From positions 67,388-131,387 of the forward strand of contig CAWBLF010000003.1 of NCBI GenBank assembly GCA_963789635.1: 64,000 nt of DNA, given 5' to 3'. Position numbers and translations under genes: made by a program. Positions within the stretch are counted from its first letter, which is position 1, and each line of letters starts with the position of its first letter. Under the pieces are notes generated by a model that worked only from the letters and a program-made list of their open reading frames with translations, was not told where the DNA came from and ran no database searches. This DNA is from an uncultured bacterium (lineage in GTDB: Bacteria > Patescibacteriota > Minisyncoccia > Phycocordibacterales > Zambryskibacteraceae). This document shows positions 3,381 through 42,164 of this stretch, in pieces.

Positions 3381-3421
3381 CATATTTCTGTCTTTGTGGT
3401 CACAGATAATAAAATTGCCGT

Positions 3422-3470
3422 CGCAATTTTATTTCTGCGACCCCGGCTCACCATAGCCAATTGCTATTGG
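3422..3470. repeat. partial copy (M4) of conserved tRNA-flank motif, plus a 9-bp perfect palindrome
   Basis: TTCTGCGACCCCGGCTCACCAT resembles the GCGCGACCCCGCCTCGCACCAT core seen at 13.7, 22.0 and 25.0 kb; ATAGCCAAT-tgct-ATTGGCTAT palindrome. Confidence 0.35.
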
Positions 3471-3534
3471 CTATATGGTTGCGCCTCGCACAGAATCAGA
3501 AAATCCCGCGCAGGCGGGATGTTTCTGTATTCTG

Positions 3535-3607
3535 TGCGCCCACCTGGATTCGAACCAGGGACCATCTCCTTAAGAGGGAGTTGCTCTACCAACTGAGCTA
3601 TGGGCGC
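3535..3607 (-). tRNA. tRNA-Lys (anticodon CTT)
   Basis: Reverse complement gives GCGCCCA-TA-GCTC-AGTTGGTA-GAGC...ACTCC-CTCTTAA-GGAGA...CCTGG-TTCGAAT-CCAGG-TGGGCGC-A. Confidence 0.8.
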
Positions 3608-6320: not shown

Positions 6321-7547
6321 ATGAAAGACGGCAAAAAATTATCAAAACTTTCGAACAAAAGTCCGAGAAAAGCGTCAAGACGAGTATATCTTGATTATGC
6401 TTCCACGACACCGATTGATAAGTCGGTTCTTAGAGAAATGAAACCATTTTTGGATGAACATTTTGAGAACCCATCTTCTTTATACAAAGAAGGCGTGGAA
6501 AATAACAAAATAATTATAAATGCGCGCGCAGGGGTTGCTCGTAGTCTTCATGCTCTTCCCGATGAAATAGTTTTTACCGGAAGTGGAACAGAGGCGGACA
6601 ACCTTGCTATTTTGGGAGTGGTAAAAGCTTCATTCAAGCTTATCAAAAAGCCACATATTGTTATTTCTGCCATTGAACACCCGGCAATTATTGAGTTGCA
6701 AAATGAAATAAAGCGAATGGGGGCTATGATTAGTGTCGTATACCCGAAAACAAATGGAATTATTGAACCGAAAGAGATTCAAAAAAATTTGAGGCAAAAT
6801 ACTGTGCTGGTATCCGTCATGTATGCCAATAACGAAATCGGGACCATTCAACCAATAAAAGAAGTTTCAAAAGTAATTCGTTTTTACAGAAAGCAAAAGG
6901 CAAAAGATTCACAATTACCTTATTTTCACACTGATGCCAGTCAGGCGGCTAATTATTGTTCGCTCAACGTATCGGAACTCGGAGTGGACCTTTTGACTAT
7001 AGATGGTTCCAAAATATATGGTCCAAAAGGTATAGGGGTGTTGTATATAAGGCGAAATACCGCTATAGAGCCCATTATATTTGGTGGTGGGCAGGAGAGG
7101 GGAATGCGTTCTGGCACAGAAAATTTGGCGCTCATTGTCGGTTTTGCAAAAGCTCTTGATCTTGTAAATAAATCTCGTGTCAAAGAATCGGCGCGCCTGA
7201 CTATACTAAGAGATTGGGCTATTAAAGAAATTCTTAAGAAATTTCCAGAAGCAACTTTGAATGGCGATTTGAAATTGCGTTTGCCAAATAATATAAATAT
7301 TTGCTTTCCTCAGTTAGACAGCGAGTACGCGGTAATTAAGGCAGATGCGTTTGGTGTATTGATATCGGCTGCTAGTTCATGCCGCACTTTATCGGAGAAT
7401 ACCACTTCTTATGTTTTGGAAAATATTGGTTCTATCGAATGCGCCGGGTCCAGTCTTAGGTTTACCTTAGGTCGAGACACAACGATGACGGAAATAAAAA
7501 TTTTACTGAAATTACTTCCTAAAATTGTACTTAATTATAATTTTTAA
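6321..7547 (+). CDS. cysteine desulfurase (class V aminotransferase, IscS/NifS-like)
   Basis: PLP-lysine region TIDGSKIYGPKGIGVLYIRR; active-site Cys loop SAASSC; about 400 aa. Confidence 0.85.
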   Translation: MKDGKKLSKLSNKSPRKASRRVYLDYASTTPIDKSVLREMKPFLDEHFENPSSLYKEGVENNKIIINARAGVARSLHALPDEIVFTGSGTEADNLAILGVVKASFKLIKKPHIVISAIEHPAIIELQNEIKRMGAMISVVYPKTNGIIEPKEIQKNLRQNTVLVSVMYANNEIGTIQPIKEVSKVIRFYRKQKAKDSQLPYFHTDASQAANYCSLNVSELGVDLLTIDGSKIYGPKGIGVLYIRRNTAIEPIIFGGGQERGMRSGTENLALIVGFAKALDLVNKSRVKESARLTILRDWAIKEILKKFPEATLNGDLKLRLPNNINICFPQLDSEYAVIKADAFGVLISAASSCRTLSENTTSYVLENIGSIECAGSSLRFTLGRDTTMTEIKILLKLLPKIVLNYNF

Positions 7548-11346: not shown

Positions 11347-11429
11347 GCGTCGGTGGTAGAGTGGTCAATTACAACAGACTGTAAATCTCTCGGCTTCGGC
11401 CTACGAAGGTTCGAATCCTTCCCGGCGCA
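11347..11429 (+). tRNA. tRNA-Tyr (anticodon GTA)
   Basis: Acceptor GCGTCGG/CCGGCGC; anticodon loop CTGTAAA; long variable arm CGGCTTCGGCC; GAAGG-TTCGAAT-CCTTC; one mismatch in the anticodon stem. Confidence 0.7.
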
Positions 11430-11434
11430 CATGC

Positions 11435-11458: not shown

Positions 11459-11587
11459 GTGCGTCGAGCAAGCAAACTACTTTGCTTGCATGGAAGATTC
11501 GAAAACCTTGAGTATATCGCGTAGCGATAAGAAAGGTGCACAGCTCCTGTCAGGAGAGAATCTTTGTGAACACCAAAAAGAAGCTTT

Positions 11588-13649: not shown

Positions 13650-13800
13650 GATTGCGGGCGGTGAAGGAATCGGTCGGACGTCGATTTCTGCTGAAATCGC
13701 GCACGACCCTGCCTCGCGCCACCGCGCTCCGGCTTTCGATTCCTTTCGCACACGCAATGATGTTCCACTCGGAAGTCTCAGCGGTCTTGCGTGATCATTG
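13650..13800. mobile_element. about 128-bp tRNA-flank module between a 22-bp direct repeat of the tRNA-Trp 3' end (M1 motif)
   Basis: ATTGCGGGCGGTGAAGGAATCG at 13651-13672 and 13797-13818; between them hairpin CGATTTC-tgctg-GAAATCG and a GC-rich second hairpin shared with motif copies at 21962 and 25021. Confidence 0.5.
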
Positions 13801-13871
13801 CGGGCGGTGAAGGAATCGAACCCTCGACAGCGGTTTTGGAGACCGCAGTTATGCCACTTAACTAACCGCCC
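13801..13871 (-). tRNA. tRNA-Trp (anticodon CCA)
   Basis: Reverse complement gives GGGCGGT-TA-GTTA-AGTGGCA-TAAC-T-GCGGT-CTCCAAA-ACCGC...GAGGG-TTCGATT-CCTTC-ACCGCCC-G. Confidence 0.8.
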
Positions 13872-14882: not shown

Positions 14883-15629
14883 TTATATTGATCCTCCGCT
14901 CGGTATTGAACCACCGCTCTGTATAGAGCCACCACTAGGAATCGATCCGCTCTGTATTGGTTGTGTTGTGGATATAGACCCACCGCTTGGGATAAATCCG
15001 CCCGCGTAAATATATCCGCCAGGAGATGCGGGATTATATGCTCCGGTTGGAAAATATAAATTGTTCCCTAGGCTAATGCTCGTATTGCAGTAGTAGAAAT
15101 AGGTGTAGTAATAACCGCTCGTTGTAAAATGTTTTTGAGGAAATACTGTCACGCTTGAGCAGGTGTTGATTGATCCTCCGGTAGCTATAGAACCTCCCGA
15201 TGGTATTGTGCCACCGCTATTAATAGTGCCACCGTTCGTACCGGTAGTACCACTTGATTGTCCAGTTTGGTTGCTTGAAGTAAATGCTCCAAGAATCTTT
15301 TCCAAAAGGCTTTGCTTTGGTGGTGGCGGGTTTGAAGAAACAACGTAATTGGGACATGCAGGATCCTGGGAATTGATCAATCCATTGCCTGCGTTATCGA
15401 CACTTACAAAACATTTCGGACAATTGGAATCCTGCATATCGGTTTTTCCATTACCGTTGTTGTCTACGCCGTCAAAACACATAGCGTAGAAGTTTGCGGG
15501 GTATGGGTCGGTGTTGCTTGGAAACTCGGCTTTGACAATGGCTATGGGAATAAATAGCATCAAAACAAGCCCGATGGCAAAAGCCGGTTTAATTTGAACG
15601 TTTTGGAGTTTTGATTTAATTGATTTCAT
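14883..15629 (-). CDS. secreted Gly/Ser-repeat protein with Cys-rich D-x-D-x-D-G modules
   Basis: Signal-peptide-like N-terminus; CFDGVDNNGNGKTDMQD...C repeats (calcium-binding-like); C-terminal (PSGGSI)n low-complexity repeats. Confidence 0.4.
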   Translation of the reverse strand: MKSIKSKLQNVQIKPAFAIGLVLMLFIPIAIVKAEFPSNTDPYPANFYAMCFDGVDNNGNGKTDMQDSNCPKCFVSVDNAGNGLINSQDPACPNYVVSSNPPPPKQSLLEKILGAFTSSNQTGQSSGTTGTNGGTINSGGTIPSGGSIATGGSINTCSSVTVFPQKHFTTSGYYYTYFYYCNTSISLGNNLYFPTGAYNPASPGGYIYAGGFIPSGGSISTTQPIQSGSIPSGGSIQSGGSIPSGGSI

Positions 15630-17079: not shown

Positions 17080-19071
17080 CTAAGGAATAAGTCTTTTGTA
17101 TGTCCTTGGGAAAGGAACGGCGTCTGAAATCATTTCTTTGGCTAGAATTTTAGCAACAAGTCTGTCCAACCCAAGACAAAAACCTCCATGATCTACAGCT
17201 TTGTCTACAATAGAAATATAAAATTCATAATCGCTTATATTGATTCCTGACAATAACATTGATTTTTTAATTTGTGCCCCGTCTGTTTGTCTAATCGCAC
17301 CACTTACAAGCTCCCAGCCATCAACGATAATATCAAAAGTTTCAGTCAATCCACCAGATTTATTTTTTGTATAAAACTTTTTTATCGTATCTGGGTAATC
17401 TTTTATGATAAAAATATCACTAGCATTTCTGCTTTTGATTAACTGACCTAATTTAGCTTCACTCACTAGGCCAAGATCATCGCCCATTGTTACGGGGTTA
17501 CCATTTTCTTGAAGCAGTTTGACTGCTTCACAATATGTCAGCACAGGAATTTTATCAATTTCAGGTAGAACCAAATAGCTTGTAAGACTAAAAGTTTTAA
17601 TCAAATCATCGTTTGTCTTCTTAATTATCTGGCAAGCCAAATAATACAAGTTCTCTAAATTCTTTGGATTTTTCAACTCAATATCTAATCCAATTGATTC
17701 TTGTAGGTGTCGATAGGATTCACTCGTTTCTTTCCTCCAAAAGGGGCCAATTTCATATATCTTCTCCAGACCAGATGCAACAAGAATTTGTTTGTAGATT
17801 TGATTAGATTGTCTCAAAAACGCAGGAGCTCCATTCATCCAATCTACATTTATTGTCCCTCCCTTATCAACTTTTGGTGGGTCGGTAGAAAGGCCTACGA
17901 TATATGGTGTCGTTACCTCTAGAAACTTTTGATCATCCAAATAATTTCTGATAATTTTGTACATTTTACTTCTCTGACTGACCAAATCTAATTTATCCTT
18001 ACCCAGCTTTTTAAAATTACTTTGTCTTTGTTGATTTATATACAGCTTTGCGACATTCCTGTTAATTTGATCAACAATTACACCTAATTTCTTGTCTATA
18101 ATACTTTTTGCTTTACTAATTTCATTTTTTCTTGCCCCAACATTGTTTTCTGCGATTTCTGATAGTTTTTCTATCCCAATAAAGCTACTGACTTTGCCCG
18201 CTAACAATGAGGGCGTTGATAAATCAACAAAGAAAATCCTGTTAAGATCATCAATCTTGTTTAGCAAACCGCCTACAACTCGCTTGGTCTCGGCATTATT
18301 ATCAAGAGCAATAATAATACATGCTATATCTTCCGATGATTTGAAATCTGCAAAAGACGAGTATTGAACACTCGTTTCATTAAGATTTTCTTTTGGAACA
18401 TCAATAATTGTCCTATTGACTATGTGTAGTGGCAAAGCATTTTCTACGTTTAAAATTTTAGCAACAAGCTTTCCGGACTTCCCATAACCAATTAATACAG
18501 ATCTCTTTCCTTCTGGGATATTTTTTACCACAAGCTCACTTGCTATTCTTTCCAAAGAAGTGTTCCCTTCAAAAATACTAGTTTTTAGTTTACATTCATT
18601 GGCAAGCTCATTAAGCCAATCAGCAATGAATACAAAAGGGCTTCCATCTCCGTGTATTCCAGACTTTAATCCTTCAGCCATTTGCGATAAAACCTGAGAA
18701 TCGCCAATTGTAACGCTATGAATTCCGACAGCACATTCGCCTAAAAATTTTATAGCGTTGATCTCATCATAAAATTTTATATCCCTAATCAAACTCATTA
18801 TTCCACCATGTGCATGAGAATCCCAAGTTGATAACATTCTCCCTCTCAGATACTCAAAAGAAAGATCGTCTTGGTAAGAAATTAACAACATAACAGCATT
18901 ACACTTCTTTATCACTGCAATAGAATCAATATTAAGTCCTAGATCATTTTTAAATTGATTTAGAAATTCAGAATCATTTTTTAGATCTGCCAATTGTAAA
19001 TTACTCAGAGCCTTTTCATCAAGTCTTTGATAGTTCAACGCTGCACAAATTATTTTATTAGAGAGTGTCAT
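17080..19071 (-). CDS. fusion protein: glutamyl-tRNA reductase-like (HemA-like) N-domain plus class II aaRS (AspRS/AsnRS-type) catalytic core
   Basis: N-terminus aligns with GluTR (CN(A) active-site Cys region KKCNAVMLL, GDSQVLSQMAEG, Rossmann VLIGYGKSGKLVAKIL...IVNRT, FFVDLSTP); C-terminus has class II motifs 1 to 3 (FLEVTTPYIV; IGPFWRKETSESYRHLQESIGLDIE; HGGFCLGLDRLVAKIL) and no anticodon-binding domain. Confidence 0.55.
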   Translation of the reverse strand: MTLSNKIICAALNYQRLDEKALSNLQLADLKNDSEFLNQFKNDLGLNIDSIAVIKKCNAVMLLISYQDDLSFEYLRGRMLSTWDSHAHGGIMSLIRDIKFYDEINAIKFLGECAVGIHSVTIGDSQVLSQMAEGLKSGIHGDGSPFVFIADWLNELANECKLKTSIFEGNTSLERIASELVVKNIPEGKRSVLIGYGKSGKLVAKILNVENALPLHIVNRTIIDVPKENLNETSVQYSSFADFKSSEDIACIIIALDNNAETKRVVGGLLNKIDDLNRIFFVDLSTPSLLAGKVSSFIGIEKLSEIAENNVGARKNEISKAKSIIDKKLGVIVDQINRNVAKLYINQQRQSNFKKLGKDKLDLVSQRSKMYKIIRNYLDDQKFLEVTTPYIVGLSTDPPKVDKGGTINVDWMNGAPAFLRQSNQIYKQILVASGLEKIYEIGPFWRKETSESYRHLQESIGLDIELKNPKNLENLYYLACQIIKKTNDDLIKTFSLTSYLVLPEIDKIPVLTYCEAVKLLQENGNPVTMGDDLGLVSEAKLGQLIKSRNASDIFIIKDYPDTIKKFYTKNKSGGLTETFDIIVDGWELVSGAIRQTDGAQIKKSMLLSGINISDYEFYISIVDKAVDHGGFCLGLDRLVAKILAKEMISDAVPFPRTYKRLIP

Positions 19072-19817: not shown

Positions 19818-21232
19818 AGAGAAGATTTTTTAAAGTTTATTCCCAGCTCAACTTTTTGCTTTTCAGATATTTCAGCTGGCGCATTCATCATTAAATCTTT
19901 TCCATCACCCGTTTTTGCAAAAGCAATGATCTCCCTAATATTTGGCTCCTGTTCAAGGATCATCATAAGTCTGTCGAATCCCCACGCAATGCCACCATGC
20001 GGTGGAGCGCCAAGCTCCAACGCTTTCAACATATGACCAAAATTGTTTTCTATTCTTTCATTGTTATACCCCATAATCTCGAAAGTAGTTCGTAGTGCAG
20101 AAGGTTTGTGATTCCTTATACTTCCGCCGCCGATTTCGAGCCCATTCAAAGTAATATCGTATTGTGTGGTAACAATTTCTCCAATACTTTCTTTCCGCAT
20201 AAATTTCTCAAAATCATTGTCTCTTGGTTTTGAAAAAGGATTATGGGTGAATGTCCACTCGCCAGTGCCATCAACATTATCCTCTCCTGTCTTTTCAAAC
20301 ATAGGGAAATCTACAATCCAAAGAAATGCAAGAAGATTTGTGTCTGTTTTATCCTCTCTTATGTCAGGTTTATCATTCCCATATTTTTTCATTGCTTCTT
20401 TGTAGGACATTCTCGGAAACGGTATTTGTTGTATCTTTTTTTCCGGATAGTTTATTTTTACGATATCAATTAATAGTTTTTCATTTAATTGCATAATGTC
20501 ATCTTCAGTAACAAAGGACATTTCCATATCAAGCTGAGTAAACTCGGGCTGTCTATCCCCGCGAGTATCCTCATCTCTCATACAACGCGCAAACTGAAAA
20601 TATTTTTCAAAACCGCCAACCATCAAAAGTTGCTTATATTGTTGCGGAGATTGAGGAAGTGAATAAAAACTTCCTTTGTAAATTCTGCTTGGCACAACAT
20701 ATGAGCGAGATCCTTCAGGTGTTGGCGCAGACAAAAGAGGCGTTTCTATTTCTAAAAAGTCATCTTTTCCAAGATAATTTCGAATGAAATTTTGAATCTT
20801 AAATCTATTTGCAATATTTTTGTGCATTCTGTCGTTTCGTAAATCCAAATATCTATATTTGAGACGAATAGATTCATTCACCTCCCTAGTATCACCACTA
20901 ATCGGGAACGGCAAAGTTGCCGATTCATTTAAAACATTGATATGCAAAATCTCAAGTTCTATATCTCCATTTAGTATTCCTAATTTTTTATTTTTCTCGG
21001 GTCTTTCGTTTACCTTTCCAGTAACTTCAACTACAAATTCTTCTCGTAGAGTTTTACCGACTTCCATTGCATTACTGTTTGGTAATATCACACCTTGTAC
21101 AATGCCTGATGTATCACGAAAATCCAGAAAGATCATTTTCCCTTGATCACGGCGAACATTAACCCAACCATAAACAATGACGGTTTCCTGTTTTTTTCCT
21201 GACAATTCATTTATGTAAGTTCTTTTTTGCAT
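19814..21232 (-). CDS. aspS: aspartyl-tRNA synthetase, bacterial type lacking the GAD insertion domain
   Basis: OB-fold N-domain, RLKYRYLDLR, motif 1 FLEIETPLL, QSPQQYKQLLMVGG...FARCMRDEDTRGDRQPEFTQLDMEMSF, GGGSIRNH, motif 3 HGGIAWGFDRLMMIL; 472 aa with no approximately 110-aa GAD insert. Confidence 0.8.
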   Translation of the reverse strand: MQKRTYINELSGKKQETVIVYGWVNVRRDQGKMIFLDFRDTSGIVQGVILPNSNAMEVGKTLREEFVVEVTGKVNERPEKNKKLGILNGDIELEILHINVLNESATLPFPISGDTREVNESIRLKYRYLDLRNDRMHKNIANRFKIQNFIRNYLGKDDFLEIETPLLSAPTPEGSRSYVVPSRIYKGSFYSLPQSPQQYKQLLMVGGFEKYFQFARCMRDEDTRGDRQPEFTQLDMEMSFVTEDDIMQLNEKLLIDIVKINYPEKKIQQIPFPRMSYKEAMKKYGNDKPDIREDKTDTNLLAFLWIVDFPMFEKTGEDNVDGTGEWTFTHNPFSKPRDNDFEKFMRKESIGEIVTTQYDITLNGLEIGGGSIRNHKPSALRTTFEIMGYNNERIENNFGHMLKALELGAPPHGGIAWGFDRLMMILEQEPNIREIIAFAKTGDGKDLMMNAPAEISEKQKVELGINFKKSSL

Positions 21233-21237
21233 ATACT

Positions 21238-21447
21238 TTATTTCATTAAAACATCAAGCGAAACGCCAAGCGCGTCTGCAATTTTTTTGACTGTATCAAT
21301 AGTAGGGTTGGGCGTTGAGCCAGCTTCTATTTTAGCAATTGTATGAAAAGCCAAATTTGCCTTTTTTGATAAGACATCTTGAGAAATGCCGAGCTTGTTT
21401 CGGTATTTCTTTATGTTGTCCCCAATTGTGGATTTATCGTTTGACAT
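21238..21447 (-). CDS. XRE-family helix-turn-helix transcriptional regulator
   Basis: 69 aa; HTH_XRE pattern IKKYRNKLGISQDVLSKKANLAFHTIAKIEAG. Confidence 0.75.
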   Translation of the reverse strand: MSNDKSTIGDNIKKYRNKLGISQDVLSKKANLAFHTIAKIEAGSTPNPTIDTVKKIADALGVSLDVLMK

Positions 21448-21546
21448 ATTCGTATAGTTTTACTATTATAGTTAGTATGTATATAAAGTCCTAACTATAT
21501 ACGAGTTAGTATATGAAATTTTCACCATTTAGTCAAACGAAATTGT

Positions 21547-21940
21547 CCGCCCGAAATCGCCAAAAGAAAACAGCGGAGCAAATGGAAAATTCCTCCCCAA
21601 ACCCCTCCTCTTCCATTTGCGACATCCGAATTCAAAAACAAATGAGCCGAAGTTTTGGCGAAATCCTTTCCCCAAAAAATAGTTTTGCCAAAACTTCGTC
21701 CGCATTAGTCCCGCCACCTGCCCGAATACTTGGAGGGCAGAGCACCAAAGAAAAATGTCCTTTCCTTTTTAGAAGAAATTGGTCGCGCGCAAATCTGAAA
21801 AGCAAGGAACATTTTTCTTTGGTGTTCGCCGAGGCTCTGCGAGGCGGTGGCGGGGCTGATTCATTCGTTCAGTTTCCGCTCGAAAAAGGTTCGCGCAAAG
21901 TGTATGATTACAGCACAAGAAAACCCCTTTTAGGGGTTTT
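21547..21940 (+). repeat. about 400-bp inverted repeat, copy 2
   Basis: Near-identical to the reverse complement of 16667-17068; followed directly by a tRNA-Leu 3'-end copy (21944-21961). Confidence 0.7.
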
Positions 21941-21943
21941 CTT

Positions 21944-22078
21944 GTGCCGGAGAGAGGACTCGGTCACACATAAAATTCTGCTGAATTTTTGCGCGACCCC
22001 GCCTCGCACCATCGTGCTCCGGCCTTCTCGTCCTCTCACCAAAATATAAAAACCAGCAGTAAGCTGGTATTTATATTT
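21944..22078. mobile_element. about 127-bp tRNA-flank module (M2 motif) between an 18-bp direct repeat of the tRNA-Leu(CAA) 3' end
   Basis: TGCCGGAGAGAGGACTCG at 21944-21961 and 22081-22098; hairpin AAAATTC-tgctg-GAATTTT; GCGCGACCCCGCCTCGCACCATCGTGCTCCGG; imperfect inverted arm CTCGTCCTCTC; AT-rich spacer. Confidence 0.5.
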
Positions 22079-22162
22079 TGGTGCCGGAGAGAGGACTCGA
22101 ACCTCCACCCCTTGCGAGACACGATTTTGAGTCGTGCGCGTCTGCCATTCCGCCACTCCGGC
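22079..22162 (-). tRNA. tRNA-Leu (anticodon CAA), CCA encoded
   Basis: Reverse complement gives GCCGGAG-TG-GCGGAATGGCAGACGC-G-CACGA-CTCAAAA-TCGTG, variable arm TCTCGCAAGGGGT, GGAGG-TTCGAGT-CCTCT-CTCCGGC-A-CCA. Confidence 0.8.
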
Positions 22163-22298
22163 ATTACTACTACTGACAACATACAACTTACAACAAATAA
22201 AATGATGAAACAAGAAGATAATCTTGTGGTGTTACCCAATTTAAATTTTGGCTAAAATTTGTTTGGGATGATTGCTTATTGTATGTTAAAATCAACGT

Positions 22299-23297
22299 AT
22301 GAGCCAATTCTATAAAGATTCTATTTTTTGGATTGAACTGGATAAAATAGAACCCAATCCATTTCAACCTCGTCGGGAATTCAGCGAGCCTGAACTGCAA
22401 AGTTTGGCGGATTCTATCCGTCAATATGGTGTGCTTCAGGCTTTGGTTGTGACCCGCAAGGAATTTCAAAAAGAAGACGGAGGAATCGGAGTGAAATATG
22501 AACTTATCGCAGGTGAACGCAGACTTCGAGCCTCGCGGGTGGCGGGACTGACACAGGTGCCGGTGCTTATTAAGACCGGTGACGACACAGACTTGATGAA
22601 GCTTGAACTTTCCATCATTGAAAATATTCAGCGTGAGGATCTGAATCCAGTGGACAGGGCGAGAGCGTTTGACAGACTTGCCAACGAATTCGGTTTTAAA
22701 CATCACATCATTGCTCAAAAAATCGGTAAAAGCAGGGAATATGTATCAAACAGCCTTCGTCTTTTGATGTTGCCGGATTTTATCTTGCAGGCCTTGAGTC
22801 AGGGTAAAATTTCCGAAGGTCATACACGACCATTGATGATGCTCCAAGACAGGACAGATGAACAAACAGTGTTGTTTAAAGAAATAATGTTTAAAAAATT
22901 GACGGTCCGTGAAGCGGAGGGGATAGCCCGTCGCATCGCCGTAGACAAAGTCCGCAAAAAAGAAAATATTATTGATCCCGAACTTATTGATTTGGAAGAA
23001 AAGTTGCGGGAAGCGCTTGGGACTCGGGTACAGATAGAAAGACGCGAGCAGGGCGGAAAAATTATGATTGATTTTTTTAACAATGACGATTTGAAAGGTC
23101 TTTTGGATATTTTTCAGACAAATGTTGTTAAAGACCCGAACGAAGCTTTGAAAAAATTTGAAACTGAACATGGGCAAGCAACAGGAAATATAGCGCAATC
23201 GGGAGAAAGTATCACAGATGAAATGCCGATTGATGATCGTTCTCAAGCGGAAAAGAATGATGATCAAATGTACTCGGTCAGCAATTTTTCGATTTAA
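22299..23297 (+). CDS. parB: chromosome partitioning protein ParB/Spo0J
   Basis: ParB N-domain GERRLRAS, HTH, C-terminal dimerisation region; 332 aa. Confidence 0.8.
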   Translation: MSQFYKDSIFWIELDKIEPNPFQPRREFSEPELQSLADSIRQYGVLQALVVTRKEFQKEDGGIGVKYELIAGERRLRASRVAGLTQVPVLIKTGDDTDLMKLELSIIENIQREDLNPVDRARAFDRLANEFGFKHHIIAQKIGKSREYVSNSLRLLMLPDFILQALSQGKISEGHTRPLMMLQDRTDEQTVLFKEIMFKKLTVREAEGIARRIAVDKVRKKENIIDPELIDLEEKLREALGTRVQIERREQGGKIMIDFFNNDDLKGLLDIFQTNVVKDPNEALKKFETEHGQATGNIAQSGESITDEMPIDDRSQAEKNDDQMYSVSNFSI

Positions 23298-23300
23298 GTT

Positions 23301-24830
23301 TTACCACTTTCTGCTTTTTTGCACGGCAATCCGAATATGACGTTTGGCTCCCGTGGTTTTGGCATATTCCAACCATTTTGCGGTCGGTTTGTTGTTTGGT
23401 CTTGTCACAATTTCCACCACATCTCCGCCAAGAAGCACCGTATCAAGGGATACCAACTTGCCGTTGACCTTTGCACCGGACATATGATTGCCAATGTCCG
23501 AGTGAATGGAGTAAGCGAAATCTACCGGGGTGGAATCTTTCGGTAAATCCACCACATCGCCTTCCGGAGTGAAGACAAATATTCTGTATTGAAAAAAATC
23601 GCTTCGCAAATCTTCTTTCAATTTTTCATTATCCGTGACATTTCCTTGATGTTTTACAAGATCCTTTATCCAATGCGGGATATCTTCAAATTTTGAAGAA
23701 AAAATAGGCACTGATTTCCAGTCGATTACTTCTTTGAAATTTTGTTTTGGAAGAAGTTGTCTTAACCATGAGAAATTTTCACCTTTGGCTCCCTTTTTGT
23801 TTCCTTCTTTGTATGAAATGTGGGAGGCAATGCCGTATTCCGAGTGAAGATACATTTCCTCCGTTTTTATTTGAACTTCCACTACATTGCCGTCCCCGGT
23901 AAAAACGGTGGTATGTAGCGCCTGATAGCCGTTTGGTTTTGGAAAAGCGATGTAGTCCTTGATGCGTCCGGGAAGTGGACGGTATGTGCCGTGTATAACA
24001 CCGAGAGCCTGATAACAATCTGCAATAGTTGGCACAATGACGCGTAGTGCAAGAATGTCGGTCACTTCTTCCAAGTGTCTTTTCTTTCCTTGCAATTTTT
24101 TATACAGACTAAACAATCCTTTGACCCTATACTCGGTACGAATGTATGTAACATTCTCTTTTGCCAAAGTTTTCTTGAGAGATTTTAAAAATTTTTCCAA
24201 ACTTTGCAAATTTTCTTCATGTTGGATTTTTACTTCCTTTTGAAGTTTTTCATACTCCTTCGGGTAGACGTAGGGGAAGGACAAGTCTTCAAGTTCGCGT
24301 GACAACTTTCTAATACCCAATCTGTATGCAATTGGGGCATAGATTTCCAAAGTTTCACTGGCTATGCGTTTACGTTTTTCTGCCGGAACATGAATAAGGG
24401 TGCGCATATTGTGGAGGCGGTCGGCGAGTTTGATCATCAGAACTCTGATGTCCTGGGCCATTGCCACAAATAGTTTGCGCATACTTTCGTTGTGACGGTC
24501 GGCCCCGTGATATTGGAGTTTGCCGAGTTTGGTAACCCCCTCAACCAAAAAAAGAATCTCGGAGTTGAATTCTTTCTCAATAACTTTCGGCGCAGTACCA
24601 ATGTCTTCTATAGTGTCGTGCAGTAGTCCGGCGGCAACAGTGGAAGCTCCCATGCCGTATTCGGCAAGAATTTTTGCAGTTTCGGACAAATGTGAAAAAT
24701 ATGGTTCACCGGATAGGCGAAGGTGATCTCTATGTGCTTCTTCTGCGAATGTATAGGCATGACGAACCACTTCCTTATCTTCTTCGGAGGAATTGTCCAT
24801 TGATGCGAGTATTTCCTCGATGGCGGCCAT
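23301..24830 (-). CDS. RelA/SpoT-homolog (p)ppGpp synthetase/hydrolase, short form
   Basis: HD hydrolase motif HDTIEDIG, RelA_SpoT synthetase region, TGS domain; no ACT domain. Confidence 0.85.
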   Translation of the reverse strand: MAAIEEILASMDNSSEEDKEVVRHAYTFAEEAHRDHLRLSGEPYFSHLSETAKILAEYGMGASTVAAGLLHDTIEDIGTAPKVIEKEFNSEILFLVEGVTKLGKLQYHGADRHNESMRKLFVAMAQDIRVLMIKLADRLHNMRTLIHVPAEKRKRIASETLEIYAPIAYRLGIRKLSRELEDLSFPYVYPKEYEKLQKEVKIQHEENLQSLEKFLKSLKKTLAKENVTYIRTEYRVKGLFSLYKKLQGKKRHLEEVTDILALRVIVPTIADCYQALGVIHGTYRPLPGRIKDYIAFPKPNGYQALHTTVFTGDGNVVEVQIKTEEMYLHSEYGIASHISYKEGNKKGAKGENFSWLRQLLPKQNFKEVIDWKSVPIFSSKFEDIPHWIKDLVKHQGNVTDNEKLKEDLRSDFFQYRIFVFTPEGDVVDLPKDSTPVDFAYSIHSDIGNHMSGAKVNGKLVSLDTVLLGGDVVEIVTRPNNKPTAKWLEYAKTTGAKRHIRIAVQKSRKW

Positions 24831-24976
24831 GTGCCCATTATATTGGTAAGGAGAAAAAATAAAAGCACCGAGTCAAAACATCCTATGTCCCAACGCATTG
24901 GGACATCGGATGTCTGATTCGCCATTCCTTACGGGACTGCGAGATTACTTCGGTTTATTTAATTTATCCGGTCGAT

Positions 24977-25400
24977 GATTTGGGCACTTGTTATTACTGC
25001 AACGAACAGGGATTGTTTTTGGTCACACATAAAATTCTGATGAATTTTTGCGCGACCCAGCCTCGCGCCGTCGCGCTCCGGTTCACCAAGACCCGCGCGC
25101 AGGCAGCCCCGTTGCCTGCTTCTATTCGGACTTGTCAATTTTGTGTGGATTATGATTTTTGCAAGATTTATTTGAACAGCGCACGGGGATTGTTTTTAGT
25201 CACAAATATTTTGCTCACCGCCATTCGCAAAATTTTGCGACCCCGACTCGGCATTTTTTCTGCTGAAAAAATATGCCTCCGTCTCACAAAAACAAGTGAG
25301 TACGCAGTCTATACTGCGTACTTTCAAAACTACTTCATTAACTTATGCGGATTGTGATTTGGGCAAGCTTTATTACTGCAACGAACAGGGATTGTTTTTG
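24977..25400. mobile_element. about 334-bp insert downstream of topA bounded by 45-bp direct repeats derived from the topA 3' end; holds motif copies M3 and M5
   Basis: 24977-25021 matches 25356-25400 (about 40/45), which encodes the topA C-terminus (CSNKACPNHNPHKL); interior has GTCACACATAAAATTCTGATGAATTTTTGCGCGACCCAGCCTCGCGCC and a rearranged copy at 25215-25275. Confidence 0.5.
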
Positions 25401-27546
25401 TGCCTTCCATCATCAAGGAACCGCAAAGTTTGCAGATTTCTCCGGTCGGTTTGGCTTTGATAGCGTATCGGCATTTGGGATAGTTGGTGCAAGAATAAAA
25501 AATGCCAAAACGGCCGCGGCGTTCAATCATCTCCCCGTCACCGCATACCGAACATTTGATGCCGGTGAGAAGTTTTTTTCTGGTCTCTGGATCATCTTTA
25601 ATAAATTTACACTTTGGGTATCGGGCACAAGAAATAAACCGGCCAAATTTTCCGTCCCTCTCCACCAGATTGGCCTTGCCACATTTGGGGCAGAGTTCAC
25701 CTGTGTCTTTGGGTCCCTCCATAGCCACACCATCTATGGTGCGAGCGCCATGGCAGTCCGGAAACTTATCACAAGAAAGGAATCTGCCATTTTTGCCAAG
25801 TTTTACTATCATTCCGGAACCGCAGACAGGGCACTTCCATTTTGCGTCCGCGGAACCCATATTGGTAATCTTGGCAATTTTATCTTTGGATTTAACGTCT
25901 TTAAGAAAAGGCCCATAAAACTCTTTTAGTGTTTTGACGTAGTCGCGTTTGCCGAGAGCGATTTCATCCAATTCATTTTCCATTTCAGCGGTGAAAGTAT
26001 CGCTGATGTAATTCATAAAATTGTTTTCAAGAAAGGTGCTGACCACGTCTCCGGTGTCGGTGGGGACGAGCGCGCGATCTATTTTCATAACGTAGCCACG
26101 ATCGATAATGGTTTTGATGATGGAGGCGTACGTCGACGGTCTACCGATACCGCGTTTTTCGAGTTCTTTGACAAGACCGGCTTCTGAATAGTGCGCTGGA
26201 GGAGTAGTTTCTTTTTCTTCAGTTCGAAAATCTTTGAGTTTTAAATTTTCACCTTTTGCAATTTTTGGAAGCTCCACATCTTCTTGTCGAGCGCGGGGGT
26301 CTGCGACAAGCCAACCATCAAAGAGTATATGAGAGCCAGTTACAGAAAAATTTGGGATTATATTCGCGCTACTGCGCTCAGTATCTTCGTCGCTCCCGCT
26401 CCTCGACACATTGGCAATTATCTTGGTGCGCAAGGTATTGGCGGAAGCCATTTGAGATGCCACTGTTCGCGCCCAAATCAAGTTGTATAACTTTTTTTGT
26501 TCTTCATTGAAACCGGCGTTTTCTTTTCTCAAATCGGATGGTCGGATGGCTTCATGGGCCTCTTGGGCGTTTTTGCTTTTTCGCGAATATACTCGCGCTT
26601 CATAATATTTTTCACCAAATTTTGATTTTACAATGTTTTCAATTTGTTGTTTTGCCACGACAGACAAGTTTGTACTATCGGTACGCATATAGGTAATTAA
26701 CCCCGCCTCGTAAAGTTTTTGAGCGGTGCCCATAGTGCGTGAAGGTGAAAAACCAAGTCTAGAGCTGGCGGCTTGTTGCAGAGTGGAAGTAATGAAAGGC
26801 GGTCGAGGCTGGCGTTTGACTTCGGTCTCTTTGATATCTATTACCGACCAATCTTCTTTCTTTGCACTGTCGACGATTTTTTCTACTGTTTCATAGTTGC
26901 GAGGTTCTTCTTCACAGGTCAGTGTTATTGGTGTTTTATCTGAAGTAAGAAAATCTGCAGTCAATGTCCAAAATTTTTCCGGCACGAAGGCTCTGATTTC
27001 ACGCTCACGCTCCATCAATATGCGAAGAGCGGGGGATTGGACACGTCCCGCAGAAAGGCCATAACGCACCTTTTTCCAAATCAAACCGGATAGGTCATAA
27101 CCCACAAGGCGGTCTAGGACTCTGCGTGCTTCTTGGGCAATTTTTAGGTTATTGTCGATTCCACGGGGATGTTTTATGGCTTCCGATACTGCGTCTTTGG
27201 TAATTTCATAAAAAACAACACGTTTGGGTTTCTTCAGTCCTACGGCCTCAGAAATGTGCCAAGCGATAGCTTCACCCTCACGGTCCGGGTCGGTGGCTAG
27301 GAGGACTTCTTCGCTATTTGCGGCAAGGTGGCGAATTTCGTTTACCACTTTTTCTTTACCTTTTGAGATTTCGTAATGAGGAACAAATCCGGCTTCGATA
27401 TCAATAGCTTTTTTGTTTGATTTTGGGAGATCACGGACATGACCAACAGAAGCGACTACATCGTATTCGCCATCAAGATATTTTGAAATTGTTTTCGCTT
27501 TTGCTGGTGACTCCACAATCAAAAGCTTTTTACCTTTTGTTGCCAT
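25330..27546 (-). CDS. topA: DNA topoisomerase I with C-terminal zinc ribbons
   Basis: TOPRIM N-terminus KLLIVESPAKAKTI; topoisomerase IA core; multiple C4 zinc-ribbon repeats. Confidence 0.9.
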   Translation of the reverse strand: MATKGKKLLIVESPAKAKTISKYLDGEYDVVASVGHVRDLPKSNKKAIDIEAGFVPHYEISKGKEKVVNEIRHLAANSEEVLLATDPDREGEAIAWHISEAVGLKKPKRVVFYEITKDAVSEAIKHPRGIDNNLKIAQEARRVLDRLVGYDLSGLIWKKVRYGLSAGRVQSPALRILMEREREIRAFVPEKFWTLTADFLTSDKTPITLTCEEEPRNYETVEKIVDSAKKEDWSVIDIKETEVKRQPRPPFITSTLQQAASSRLGFSPSRTMGTAQKLYEAGLITYMRTDSTNLSVVAKQQIENIVKSKFGEKYYEARVYSRKSKNAQEAHEAIRPSDLRKENAGFNEEQKKLYNLIWARTVASQMASANTLRTKIIANVSRSGSDEDTERSSANIIPNFSVTGSHILFDGWLVADPRARQEDVELPKIAKGENLKLKDFRTEEKETTPPAHYSEAGLVKELEKRGIGRPSTYASIIKTIIDRGYVMKIDRALVPTDTGDVVSTFLENNFMNYISDTFTAEMENELDEIALGKRDYVKTLKEFYGPFLKDVKSKDKIAKITNMGSADAKWKCPVCGSGMIVKLGKNGRFLSCDKFPDCHGARTIDGVAMEGPKDTGELCPKCGKANLVERDGKFGRFISCARYPKCKFIKDDPETRKKLLTGIKCSVCGDGEMIERRGRFGIFYSCTNYPKCRYAIKAKPTGEICKLCGSLMMEGTKTIPVRCSNKACPNHNPHKLMK

Positions 27547-27660
27547 TGGTCCTCATTAGTACTACAGATATTTATTTGTTGCAAGTTTTTTGACAATTAA
27601 AATGGAAAATAAAACTTTTTATTTCATCGTAGCTTAGTATTTTGGTAAATAAAAAAATAG

Positions 27661-28518
27661 TTAATTTAATCTCATTTCGCCCATGCTTTCTGTCACCACC
27701 CCGCGGATTTCCAAGACGGCCAGTGTGGAGTTTGCAATGTGAGTAGGTAGGCCACTTTCACGGATAATTTCATCCCGAGACTTCGGTGTTTCCAGCAAGT
27801 CTAGTATTGTTTGCTCTTCCGGATTTTGCGCTTGATATATAACTTTTTCCTTTTCTTCCGGAGAAAAGCCAAGAGCCAATAAAATGTCATCAGCTTTGCG
27901 AATTGGTGTCGCCCCTAGACGAATGAGCATATGGGGTCCTTCGGATTGCTTGGAAAATATTGAGCCGGGAACGGCAAAGACATCGCGGTTGTATTCCGTG
28001 GCAAGTTTTGAAGTGATGAGTGTCCCGGATTTTTCCTCTGCCTCAATGACCAGCACAGCGTGACTCATCCCGGCCATGATGCGATTACGTTGGGGAAAGC
28101 TCCATTGGGTCGGTCGGAAGTCATCGGCAAATTCCGACAGCAAACCGCCTCCGGATTCAATAATATTTTCTGCCAGTCTCAAGTGGCTTTGGGGATACAA
28201 CACTTTTGGGTTGAGACCGGAACCAGGCACGGCAACGGTATGTATATTGTGTGCAAGCGCCGTCTTGTGGGCGATAGAATCAATACCTAGAGCCAGACCC
28301 GATACAATAGTAATGGGGTAACCGGCTAGACCGGATACCAAGGTTTCGCAAACCTCACGGCCGTATTCGGTGTGCTTGCGGGATCCCACAACACAAAGAA
28401 TTTTGTTCTCACTGGGTGGCAAAATCCCTGCAAAGCGAAGCGCATCTGGAGGGTCTGTGATTTCGGCTAATAGTGGCGGAAAGTCTTCCTGTTGTAAATC
28501 TTGAATGGAATACGGCAT
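27661..28518 (-). CDS. dprA: DNA processing protein DprA (Smf)
   Basis: DprA Rossmann-like domain (VSGLALGIDSIAHKTAL, VLVIEAEEKSGTLITS). Confidence 0.8.
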   Translation of the reverse strand: MPYSIQDLQQEDFPPLLAEITDPPDALRFAGILPPSENKILCVVGSRKHTEYGREVCETLVSGLAGYPITIVSGLALGIDSIAHKTALAHNIHTVAVPGSGLNPKVLYPQSHLRLAENIIESGGGLLSEFADDFRPTQWSFPQRNRIMAGMSHAVLVIEAEEKSGTLITSKLATEYNRDVFAVPGSIFSKQSEGPHMLIRLGATPIRKADDILLALGFSPEEKEKVIYQAQNPEEQTILDLLETPKSRDEIIRESGLPTHIANSTLAVLEIRGVVTESMGEMRLN

Positions 28519-40988: not shown

Positions 40989-42164
40989 CTAGGGGTTGGT
41001 TGAACTTCCTGTTGTAGGCGTGGAGGAAGAATATTGTCCAGATGTTTGCGTGTCAACGCCACCTTGTTGTTGAGTGTCGTTTTGACTTTGTTGTTGTCCA
41101 CCTTGCCAGTTGCCCATTTTTTGGAAGACTGCCTGACATTCGGCTTGGTGACTCACCACACTGCAGTAGGCATCGCAACTTTGTTGTGAATTACAGCCTC
41201 CCGGGCCAGCAATGTTTTGCTCATTACCATTTTGTTGGCCGTTGTTTTGATTGCCATTTTGTTGATTGCCGTTTTGGTTGCCTCCTTGCCAGTTGCCCAT
41301 TTTTTGGAAGACTGCCTGACATTCGGCTTGGTGACTCACCACACTGCAGTAGGCATCGCAACTTTGTTGTGAATTACAGCCACCAGGACCTTGGAAATTG
41401 TTGTGAATCTGGGCATTTTGCGTCATGGCACTATCAAACCCCATTAATTGCGTAAACACGGTGCATTCTGCGCCGTGACTGGGATCACTGCAATAAGATT
41501 CGCATGCTGAAAATTCGCTACAACCGTTTGGTGTTTTTCCTTGTTGGACCAAGGTGTTAAATTTTTGCAAAACCTCCGGACTGACATTGTCCAAACCTCC
41601 TTGTCCGGTAGGATTTATATTTAAACCGATAGCTTTAAATGTTTGCATGCACGCATCCATATGGGCCGGATTTGAACAATATGTTTGACAAGAGGATTTT
41701 GAGGTGCAGTTGCCAGGCATTTGGCCACCACTTTGTAGATATTTCAAAACTTTTTTACCTTCCGTGAGGTCAGGCGTGGTGAAGCCGTTTTTCTGGGCGA
41801 AATTCAGACAAGTCGAAAGGTTGCTGATGGTAGAGCAATAAGCATCACAAGCGTCGGCAGAATCGCATCCACCCGGGCCGTTGCCGTGTGTCAAGAGCGC
41901 AGCATACTGGCTCGCTGTCGACGCTTCATCGGCTGTTATCATGCCGTGTTCCTTGGCGAAGTTTGCACAGGCAGGAATATTGGCGGCGATATCACAGTAA
42001 GCATGGCACGAAGTCTGATCGGTGCAGTTGCCGAGCGCGGCAACAGGGAAGCTAATGCCGTTTTGATTCCCTGAATTTTGCGCCAATACCCTTTGGGAAG
42101 TAAAAAAACTACTTAAAATCATCGCACAAATAAGCAAAACTTTTATTGTTTTAGTGTTTTTCAT
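40989..42164 (-). CDS. secreted cysteine-rich tandem-repeat protein
   Basis: Signal peptide; at least 6 repeats of an about 45-aa C...C..YC......C module; two near-identical DNA repeat units about 135 nt long around 41100-41400. Confidence 0.5.
   Translation of the reverse strand: MKNTKTIKVLLICAMILSSFFTSQRVLAQNSGNQNGISFPVAALGNCTDQTSCHAYCDIAANIPACANFAKEHGMITADEASTASQYAALLTHGNGPGGCDSADACDAYCSTISNLSTCLNFAQKNGFTTPDLTEGKKVLKYLQSGGQMPGNCTSKSSCQTYCSNPAHMDACMQTFKAIGLNINPTGQGGLDNVSPEVLQKFNTLVQQGKTPNGCSEFSACESYCSDPSHGAECTVFTQLMGFDSAMTQNAQIHNNFQGPGGCNSQQSCDAYCSVVSHQAECQAVFQKMGNWQGGNQNGNQQNGNQNNGQQNGNEQNIAGPGGCNSQQSCDAYCSVVSHQAECQAVFQKMGNWQGGQQQSQNDTQQQGGVDTQTSGQYSSSTPTTGSSTNP

Follow-up and report, generated by a model that had tools for sequence, protein, structure and literature searches.

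We describe here a family of small structured DNA elements, five copies of which lie at duplicated gene 3' ends in a 64-kb stretch of the small, Paceibacteria-like genome of an uncultured member of the Patescibacteria (contig CAWBLF010000003.1, positions 67,388 to 131,387; this whole stretch is hereafter called the window). The repeated unit is, with high confidence, a mobile integrative module. The reading that we favor, and that we hold to be somewhat better than evenly balanced, is that the family represents the conserved core of gene-less, non-autonomous, site-specific integrative modules in which a folded three-way junction serves as the recombination site; that this core acts as folded single-stranded DNA is a more tentative proposal, which we place slightly below the midpoint. 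Directly supported are the family and its structure, the strand on which it folds, the position of the joint, the existence of filled and empty sites, the serial replacement of a gene end and the lack of an enzyme gene linked to the copies.

Read on the strand of the neighboring gene (the gene strand, which is the minus strand of the window for all five copies), the unit starts after the gene body with t_new, the replacement copy of the gene 3' end, continues with a hairpin T, a segment Y that is an inverted, imperfect and partial copy of t_new, an AAAG junction and the hairpins P3 and P2, and ends on t', the displaced old end of the gene. It measures about 110-200 bp, contains no genes and meets t' directly after the last base of P2, with zero spacer. 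The copy at tRNA-Trp (c2) illustrates this plan. There, as predicted from the letters of the window, the 3' end of the tRNA gene is duplicated exactly over 22 bp (ATTGCGGGCGGTGAAGGAATCG, 13651-13672 and 13797-13818), the right copy corresponding to tRNA-Trp (13800-13871, minus strand) from T-loop nucleotide 56 to its end, plus 3 nt. A module does exist between the two repeats, of 124 bp (13673-13796) and not of 128 bp as first given, and the two hairpins reported in it are both present, hairpin 1 as P2 and hairpin 2 as P3. The parts of c2 are as follows.

13651 to 13672, minus strand: displaced old copy (t') of the tRNA-Trp 3' end, left repeat arm.
13673 to 13707, minus strand: hairpin P2 ("hairpin 1"), on the gene strand GUCGUGCGCGAUUUC-AGCAG-GAAAUCGACGUCCGAC; its 3' foot touches the displaced copy with no spacer.
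13711 to 13733, minus strand: hairpin P3 ("hairpin 2"), with internal loop GGA/GA on the gene strand.
13737 to 13758, minus strand: Y, an imperfect inverted copy of the tRNA-Trp 3' end, able to pair with either direct copy.
13759 to 13796, minus strand: spacer from Y to the tRNA, with a weak hairpin only and no terminator-like site on either strand.
13797 to 13871, minus strand: tRNA-Trp (13800-13871) plus 3 nt; 13797-13818 is the right repeat arm and functional gene end (t_new).

The family extends far beyond the window. When a collection holding one genome per species (596 Gb) was searched with the pattern GTCACANATA-N(10-40)-GCGACCCNGNCTC, at least 120 loci were matched. With 20 specified bases and 31 gap lengths, about 30 matches are expected by chance, and the claim of a family hence rests on the covariance model, which confirms 119 of the 120 loci; the remaining one, in Cryobacterium, is a chance match. 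Multiple copies are frequent, since 18 of the first 100 loci hold two or three within 8 kb or less. Judging from record titles, the hosts are nearly all Saccharibacteria, Paceibacterota/Parcubacteria and other groups of the candidate phyla radiation (CPR), with a few Elusimicrobia. Among viral contigs, a single pattern match was obtained; it lies inside a coding region and is rejected by the covariance model, and the idea of a phage attP site was dropped. At the gathering threshold, Rfam 15 recognizes only tRNA, rRNA and transfer-messenger RNA (tmRNA) in the window and 15 further loci and assigns the motif to no family, the families named as failing the threshold including hammerhead, twister, hatchet, HEARO/omega RNA, retron msr and tRNA-like; permissive scans of c2 and of the copy at tRNA-Leu(CAA) (c3) return only weak matches to miRNA-type hairpins. 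Full-text literature searches found no description of the element, and it is not described in a paper on group I introns in the tRNA genes of Patescibacteria (PMC13011429). Judged by Rfam 15 and the searchable literature, this family, which is real and widespread, is thus undescribed so far. Several known RNAs were also considered by anatomy and rejected: the CUGAUGA of the first topA copy (c4), suggestive of a hammerhead, belongs to a variable loop and has neither the strand nor the position that a hammerhead would need, while a retron, a group I or II intron, a T-box, a tRNA-like or minihelix mimic and an RNase P external guide sequence each fail on anatomy or for want of a partner gene.

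Some loci depart from the standard plan. In what we call class-2 copies (locus L078, 590-760; L098, about 2340-2460; L028, 473-610; L093, 4290-4450), a local hairpin after P3 replaces H, the hairpin formed by t_new, T and Y, and with it the inverted target copy, and there is no flanking t repeat. These copies lie beside the 5' end of a tRNA gene or downstream of a 5S gene, and their flanks carry partial direct or inverted duplicates of the 5S rRNA (L078) or of the 5' part of the tRNA in the region of the D-arm (L098, L028 and L093); their local hairpin fits the same three-hairpin plan. At about 6340-6560 of L104, adjoining a tmRNA gene (6650-7053), a class-2 copy is apparently nested in the 3' strand of P2 (at GCGAC) of another copy, itself located downstream of the tmRNA gene. 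Odd tRNAs were also encountered: ARAGORN predicts a "tRNA-Stop" adjoining the element at about 1210 of L060 (oriented coordinates), and a tRNA-like sequence with a CUA anticodon loop abuts the element at about 5840-5900 of L096. Both are possible cases of suppressor or otherwise unusual tRNAs in Saccharibacteria.

Regarding structure, all copies share an outer stem, the long hairpin P2 with a conserved foot and the hairpin P3 with a conserved internal loop. Across 118 distinct aligned copies, standard pairing is found in 90.6% of the cells, against 68.0% after shuffling (a value reached by none of 500 shuffles) and 34-49% when the partners are slid by 1-3 columns; 27 of the 31 pairs have changed on both sides. 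An alignment made with MAFFT, and hence not fitted to the structure, gives 87.8% against 70.4% shuffled. A chance origin of the structure is excluded, in agreement with the original prediction of a motif family under selection for its structure. The compensatory changes then listed for hairpin 1 are borne out by massive covariation, although one of the three examples had compared non-homologous hairpins: the stem GGCATTTTTT/AAAAAATATGCC of the copy at 25199-25283 is its extended P3, the true hairpin 1 (P2) of that copy being ATTTTGC/GCAAAAT (25208-25234).

The fold had been drawn on the plus strand, on which the P2 foot, GTCACA/CGCGAC, contains two conserved A x C mismatches and the P3 loop reads UC/UCC. 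On the gene strand, both mismatches become G.U pairs and the P3 loop becomes a purine GGA/GA loop. The P2 foot is then GUCGCG/UGUGAC, with one G.U pair invariant in 117 of 117 copies and a second position occupied by G.U in 91, A-U in 20 and G-C in 7. Of 117 copies, 116 have a better-folding P2 on this strand and 106 a better-folding P3; the well-folding strand is the window minus strand, that of the neighboring gene, and not the one initially drawn. The tip motifs of the two hairpins are seen to swap: short forms bear CAGCAG on P2 and GACG on P3 (gene strand; for example, window 21979-21985 and 22009-22014), and long forms bear CGAGCGACGGCGAG on P2 and CAGCAG on an extended P3 (25214-25227 and 25259-25266), a swap that may reflect a tertiary contact or two protein contacts. 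The idea that the GCCGTCGC tip is a DNA-uptake sequence was discarded, the window holding three matches (two of them inside elements) against 0.83 expected, with no genome-wide signal.

The third hairpin was delineated from the pairing of Y. The complementarity between Y and t is far above that of permuted partners (p = 1e-9), and the functional copy is a better partner for Y than the displaced one (22 vs 7, p = 0.001). The outer stem that is closed with the left duplicate is not maintained by selection, as its pairing displays no strand bias (G.U 79 vs A.C 77). The hairpin H, for its part, has a very high stability (median z = -5.5), and its better-folding strand is more often the gene strand than the complement (33 vs 18, p = 0.008). 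With the pairing of Y to t' both unbiased and weaker, and H stable, the maintained structure consists of the three hairpins H, P3 and P2, and the outer stem of the integrated state arises incidentally, from the presence of a second t beside P2.

Hairpin T is itself variable. Among 70 cases, it is terminator-like in both directions in 28, on the plus strand only in 14, on the gene strand only in 5 and in neither direction in 23, that is, in 33 of 70 in the direction of the gene and in 42 of 70 in the other. These figures, which favor neither RNA nor DNA as the acting molecule, recur in two explanations that place the function in RNA. In the first, a small plus-strand RNA, antisense to the tRNA, would start in the left duplicate and end at T. 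We consider it highly improbable. The slight excess of terminator-like hairpins in that direction (42 of 70) and the possibility that the upstream gene alr reads into c2 would agree with it; the strand that it requires, however, is the one on which A x C mismatches stand at two conserved positions of P2 and the P3 loop is made of pyrimidines, with worse folding of P2 in 116 and of P3 in 106 of 117 copies. Moreover, the left flank is pre-existing chromosomal DNA, so that no promoter is supplied, the upstream relA diverges at the two topA copies (c4 and c5), and there is no promoter-like site upstream of c2 on the plus strand.

In the second, the P2-P3 three-way junction would be a functional RNA of the gene strand, made by read-through from the tRNA or other gene, or from an excised form. 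It could be a guide or "bridge" RNA whose Y, through base pairing, names the target of a recombinase encoded in trans; alternatively, it could serve the cell in a function connected with tRNA genes. The DNA module would in both cases be merely its carrier. This is a possible explanation, if a rather unlikely one. It has in its favor the invariant G.U pair, the A-rich junction and the GGA/GA loop, the extreme degree to which the sequence of the junction core is kept in both CPR and Elusimicrobia, and the complementarity of Y to the crossover-proximal part of t. Furthermore, the element is always co-oriented with a promoter-bearing gene, and no terminator stands between tRNA-Trp and c2, nor in the gene direction in 37 of the 70 cases. 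Against these points, a stable H would compete with folding of the tRNA in a co-transcript, a terminator-like hairpin precedes Y-P3-P2 in the gene direction in 33 of 70, and neither an Rfam match nor a linked protein gene (121 loci) was found. The joint also coincides to the base with the foot of P2 in all copies, as expected of a recombination site and not needed by a passenger RNA gene.

The tie between the motif and duplicated gene 3' ends, proposed from the window, extends to the whole family. A tRNA gene is found 84-600 nt beyond the motif in 83 of 132 instances, representing at least 17 isotypes, and all 83 are co-oriented with the folded strand; same-strand tRNAs, of opposite relative orientation, are listed only at more than 600 nt. 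Besides tRNA genes, the targets identified comprise the 3' ends of topA (that of the window plus three other genomes, the latter assigned from resemblance of the flanks) and of rplL (three genomes), and a tmRNA. Among 46 cases in which the flanking repeat could be scored, 37 have the joint between tRNA nucleotides 55 and 56, and 7 have it 3-5 nt from the 3' end. Exact direct repeats reach up to 40 nt at other loci, and wherever they measure at least 9 nt the right copy ends 90-380 nt from the joint; no cargo-bearing version exists among these copies.

All the motif copies predicted in the window (21962-22030, 25021-25085, 25215-25275 and 3422-3470) proved to be real, including the one at 3422-3470, described as partial, which is a complete copy adjoining tRNA-Lys. 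The covariance model (R1) recognizes exactly five copies, with E from 2.7e-23 to 2.3e-07 and the next match at E = 0.38: 21953-22035 (92.8 bits), 13663-13745 (88 bits), 25012-25094 (75 bits), 25193-25292 (45 bits) and 3395-3492 (35 bits). The core pattern, allowing at most two mismatches, is matched seven times, against 2.06 expected by chance. One copy each is present at tRNA-Lys, tRNA-Trp and tRNA-Leu(CAA), and two are in tandem at the 3' end of topA. Besides c2, the following features were delineated.

3384 to 3533, minus strand: c1, downstream of tRNA-Lys (3534-3607); degenerate old copy 3384-3398, P2 3399-3441, long P3 3445-3485, Y 3486-3496, terminator-like hairpin 3503-3520.
21944 to 22099, minus strand: c3, at tRNA-Leu(CAA) (22079-22162), with a direct repeat of 19 nt; old copy 21944-21962, P2 21963-21997, P3 22001-22023, Y 22030-22040, bidirectional terminator-like hairpin 22037-22082, functional end 22081-22099.
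24959 to 25135, minus strand: c4, at topA; X0 24959-25021, P2 25022-25056, P3 25060-25082, Y about 25083-25095, hairpin 25099-25119.
25136 to 25329, minus strand: c5, at topA; X1 25136-25198, P2 25199-25241, long P3 25245-25283, Y 25284-25298, hairpin 25299-25322.
25330 to 25400, minus strand: current topA 3' end (X2, brought by c5), encoding KTIPVRCSNKACPNHNPHKLMK*.
11486 to 11578, plus strand: possible sixth copy, divergent or decayed, downstream of tRNA-Tyr (11347-11430).

The stretch downstream of tRNA-Tyr has the same three-way-junction topology, with an outer stem GGAAGAUUC/GAAUCUUU that resembles the T-arm of tRNA-Tyr, together with a GAAAA junction and two hairpins, one of them P3-like with GA/GA loops and the second one short. 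Its core sequence differs, R1 does not match it, and the syntenic region of a relative (L122) can be aligned to it in part; it is probably an old or divergent member of the family. Modules thus occupy three of the eight tRNA genes of the window, four if this decayed copy is counted, and the essential gene topA. As a separate observation, the region around 20000-28000 of the window combines a minimum of the cumulative GC skew, a turn of gene orientation from mostly minus to mostly plus and parB (22299-23297), and may contain a replication origin; the five copies confirmed by R1 lie to the left of this candidate region or within it.

The behavior of the modules can be followed at topA. At its 3' end lies a series of three 63-nt repeats, only 63-84% identical in DNA, each of which encodes an intact TopA C-terminus closed by a stop codon: X2, currently in the gene, encodes KTIPVRCSNKACPNHNPHKLMK; X1, displaced and brought by c4, encodes KTIPVRCSNKSCKNHNPHKIDKSE, its reading frame running to a stop codon at 25122-25124 inside the span of c4; X0, displaced and the oldest, encodes KTIPVRCSNNKCPNHRPDKLNKPK*. 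Three intact and divergent C-termini are what is predicted by serial integration of modules that each carry a foreign topA end, the newest adjoining the gene. The identity of X2 with X0 and X1 begins at the joint sequence AAAAACAATCCC, a stretch of 12 nt, and its restriction to that sequence at the joint argues for site-specific over general homologous recombination. Empty sites exist as well. In a relative whose MiaA is 86% identical, gene order is conserved and 40 nt separate alr from tRNA-Trp, with no element; in another, with 60% MiaA identity, topA and relA are 21 nt apart and tRNA-Leu(CAA) adjoins parB, with no element at either place. The suspected insertion-like behavior of the motif is upheld by these empty sites and by the three serial C-termini. 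Finally, c3 (at tRNA-Leu) and c4 (at topA) are nearly identical in P2-P3 and unrelated in t and Y, which indicates that one core lineage can switch address.

Such observations weigh on the more conventional explanations. That the copies are generic intrinsic terminators or palindromes of the repetitive extragenic palindromic (REP) type, independent of the duplications, is extremely improbable: a position downstream of genes, a multi-copy occurrence and an often terminator-like hairpin T would suit such elements, whereas P2 and P3 lack a following U-tract, covariation accompanies a core sequence that is shared between phyla, duplications recur systematically at the flanks and comprise alternative coding ends that are intact, and the window holds just five copies, all at duplicated gene 3' ends. 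A diversity-generating retroelement was likewise rejected; the topA repeats differ at all types of bases while each encodes an ordinary conserved C-terminus, the tRNA ends are not diversified, and no reverse transcriptase gene occurs among the window open reading frames (ORFs) scanned with Pfam. The copies could also be scars, i.e., attL/attR remnants or deletion derivatives of the cis-mobilizable element (CIME) kind, left by large islands or prophages with ordinary tRNA-specific integrases. The choice of targets (3' ends of tRNA, tmRNA and conserved protein genes), the T-loop joint and the restored gene end speak for this view, all three being classic traits of tyrosine-integrase islands. We nevertheless judge it very unlikely. 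More than 120 copies have a uniform size and identical boundaries and, where repeats reach 9 nt, neither cargo nor an adjoining integrase; a single covarying core is found at 17 or more tRNA isotypes and several protein genes, which would demand many integrase specificities sharing one arm sequence; and the motif is absent from the viral contigs scanned. The earlier suggestion of attachment-site remnants of larger islands meets the same obstacle, as neither a transposase nor an integrase was noticed beside the copies, in the window ORFs scanned or in the 121 motif-bearing loci.

A linked enzyme was sought in the surroundings of the copies. Among 40 window ORFs, Pfam recognized housekeeping genes alone and neither a recombinase nor a transposase or reverse transcriptase. 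When 1640 ORFs from the 121 motif-bearing loci were clustered all against all, with clusters judged by eye from their first residues and without a Pfam scan, no protein family proved common to more than nine loci, and the ORFs around class-2 copies have nothing in common. One XerC/D-like ORF is located 2 kb from the L091 copy. Among the window ORFs, a few deserve mention on their own account. A 663-amino-acid ORF (17080-19071, minus strand) unites N-terminal domains like those of glutamyl-tRNA reductase and shikimate dehydrogenase with the core of a class II (Asp/Lys/Asn-type) aminoacyl-tRNA synthetase; this unusual fusion adjoins a short-chain dehydrogenase gene and a normal LysRS-type gene. 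Two ORFs without a Pfam match contain repeats: 14883-15629 (minus strand), with 18-nt periodic units at 14887-15242, and 40989-42164 (minus strand), with a 117-nt repeat of 94% identity at 41091-41390.

For the favored reading, that of gene-less integrative modules with a folded recombination site, the following mechanism can be proposed. We infer a circular intermediate, a single-stranded DNA form and the kind of enzyme involved. Closed into a circle, the unit would bring H, P3 and P2 together at a three-way junction, and the recombination joint would be the zero-length junction between P2 and H. The t borne by the element would cross over with the chromosomal t, for which a short identity should suffice (12 nt at topA), so that the gene would retain a working end and its former end would be shifted outward. 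If another unit integrated there later, it would be stacked next to the gene. The conserved P2-P3 junction would be recognized by a recombinase encoded elsewhere in the genome, acting, probably, on the folded single strand, as the integron integrase does on attC and XerCD on CTX attP(+), with the stem of H presenting the target address as a duplex.

Several observations sit uneasily with this proposal. Neither the Pfam scan of window ORFs nor the recurrent clusters formed by ORFs of the 121 loci pointed to a recombinase. Apart from the two conserved G.U pairs, P2 and P3 show little wobble asymmetry, and an invariant G.U pair together with a tandem-GA internal loop is commoner in functional RNA than in DNA sites. 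T is not terminator-like in the gene direction in 37 of 70 cases, and nothing terminator-like separates tRNA-Trp from c2, which makes a read-through RNA of the folded strand possible. The relatives with empty sites have MiaA identities of only 86% and 60% and therefore do not attest recent mobility. The simple model gives no account of class-2 copies with their duplicates of 5S rRNA or tRNA 5' parts, nor of the route by which a core lineage acquires a new matched pair of t and Y. A different proposal, about which we are doubtful, is a new kind of nucleic acid-programmed integration, in which a single-stranded circle of 110-200 nt, DNA or RNA, folded into the three hairpins, would carry in its t:Y hairpin an exchangeable address, able to target any gene 3' end through homology, that is also the replacement end, with P2-P3 recruiting a host enzyme or being itself catalytic, and retargeting being achieved by a change of t and Y.

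Comparison with known systems helps to situate the modules. The closest among the options of the original prediction is that of a miniature site-specific integrative element with a hairpin site of the attC kind, though not a canonical attC. Like the integron attC, of which IntI uses the folded bottom strand, they are small mobile units with a strand-specific folded site whose shape is kept over its sequence, with the crossover at the foot of the structure and, in the integrated state, an outermost stem built partly from flanking neighbor or target DNA; insertion is serial, with the newest unit at the entry point, and the recombinase is encoded in trans (for the modules, this is proposed). In contrast, they have no attI, IntI gene or cassette ORF, and the copies are dispersed at gene 3' ends instead of forming an array, with no tyrosine recombinase in the window ORFs scanned with Pfam. 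Their targets are the 3' ends of many genes, and it is the repeated "core" of 9-63 nt that restores the end of the gene. Sequence conservation is high in the junction core, and the shape is that of a three-way junction, not a bulged hairpin. The R''/R' consensus (RYYYAAC/GTTRRRY, with crossover G|TT) is missing at the joint, which in all copies reads ...UGUGAC|t on the gene strand (X|GTCACA on the plus strand).

The forked hairpin of CTX-phi attP(+) and other integrative mobile elements exploiting Xer recombination (IMEX) offer another parallel. Here a folded single-stranded site imitates a duplex recombination site through a branch or unpaired region at the crossover, and a host recombinase (XerCD) is used, so that no integrase of their own is needed. 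IMEX are, however, phages or islands with genes that integrate only at dif, through a dif-like site with a fixed 6-8-bp central region, whereas the arm spacing of P2 varies by more than 10 nt between copies and the targets of the modules are gene 3' ends. The resemblance of P2 (GGTCGCGCAAAA...TTATGTGTGACC) to the arms of E. coli dif (GGTGCGCATAA...TTATGTTAAAT) is weak and at most a weak lead; as evidence for a dif/Xer site it was rejected, the spacing being variable and the crossover at the wrong end.

With tRNA and tmRNA islands that use tyrosine integrases and with CIMEs, the modules share integration into the 3' part of tRNA or tmRNA genes, a crossover in the T-loop, a carried replacement gene end and a displaced partial copy left as a direct repeat. 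They differ from them, within the motif-containing loci covered, by a total size of 110-200 bp with no integrase and no cargo, by one structured core serving many targets and by the additional inverted target copy Y. Elements of the IS200/IS605 group and their palindrome-associated derivatives (PATE), as well as REP/RAYT systems, also have strand-specific hairpins and gene-less multi-copy derivatives downstream of genes, and IS608 recognizes its target by base pairing with an internal guide, another likeness to the modules. Such elements make no target duplication, bear hairpins at both ends, use targets of 4-5 nt and have TnpA or RAYT in the genome; the modules display long duplications of gene ends and conserved hairpins at one end only, and in none of the recurrent clusters formed by the ORFs of the 121 loci was a TnpA or RAYT transposase noticed, whole genomes not having been searched. 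For these reasons, the IS200/IS605 option raised initially was abandoned. Lastly, the bridge (seek) RNAs of IS110/IS1111 are, like the present core, a structured non-coding end of mobile DNA with a target-complementary segment, which suggests programmable targeting. They possess two internal loops, are encoded beside a DEDD recombinase and belong to insertions that leave no long repeats, and the modules share with them no similarity in Rfam or in sequence.

Present in at least 119 species-level genomes of Patescibacteria and Elusimicrobia, these modules are a major trait of genome organization in a vast and little understood region of bacterial diversity. They are also a hazard for annotation: the displaced pseudo-ends that they leave of tRNA and protein genes, like the long inverted copies of tRNA 3' ends, can lead gene callers and predictors of terminators astray. 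If the modules do rely on a folded site and a trans-encoded enzyme, they would represent a new mode of spread for gene-less DNA, in which essential genes stay intact. They would then provide a marker of horizontal exchange, since imported gene ends can be traced, and a candidate for programmable and scar-tolerant insertion at chosen gene ends.

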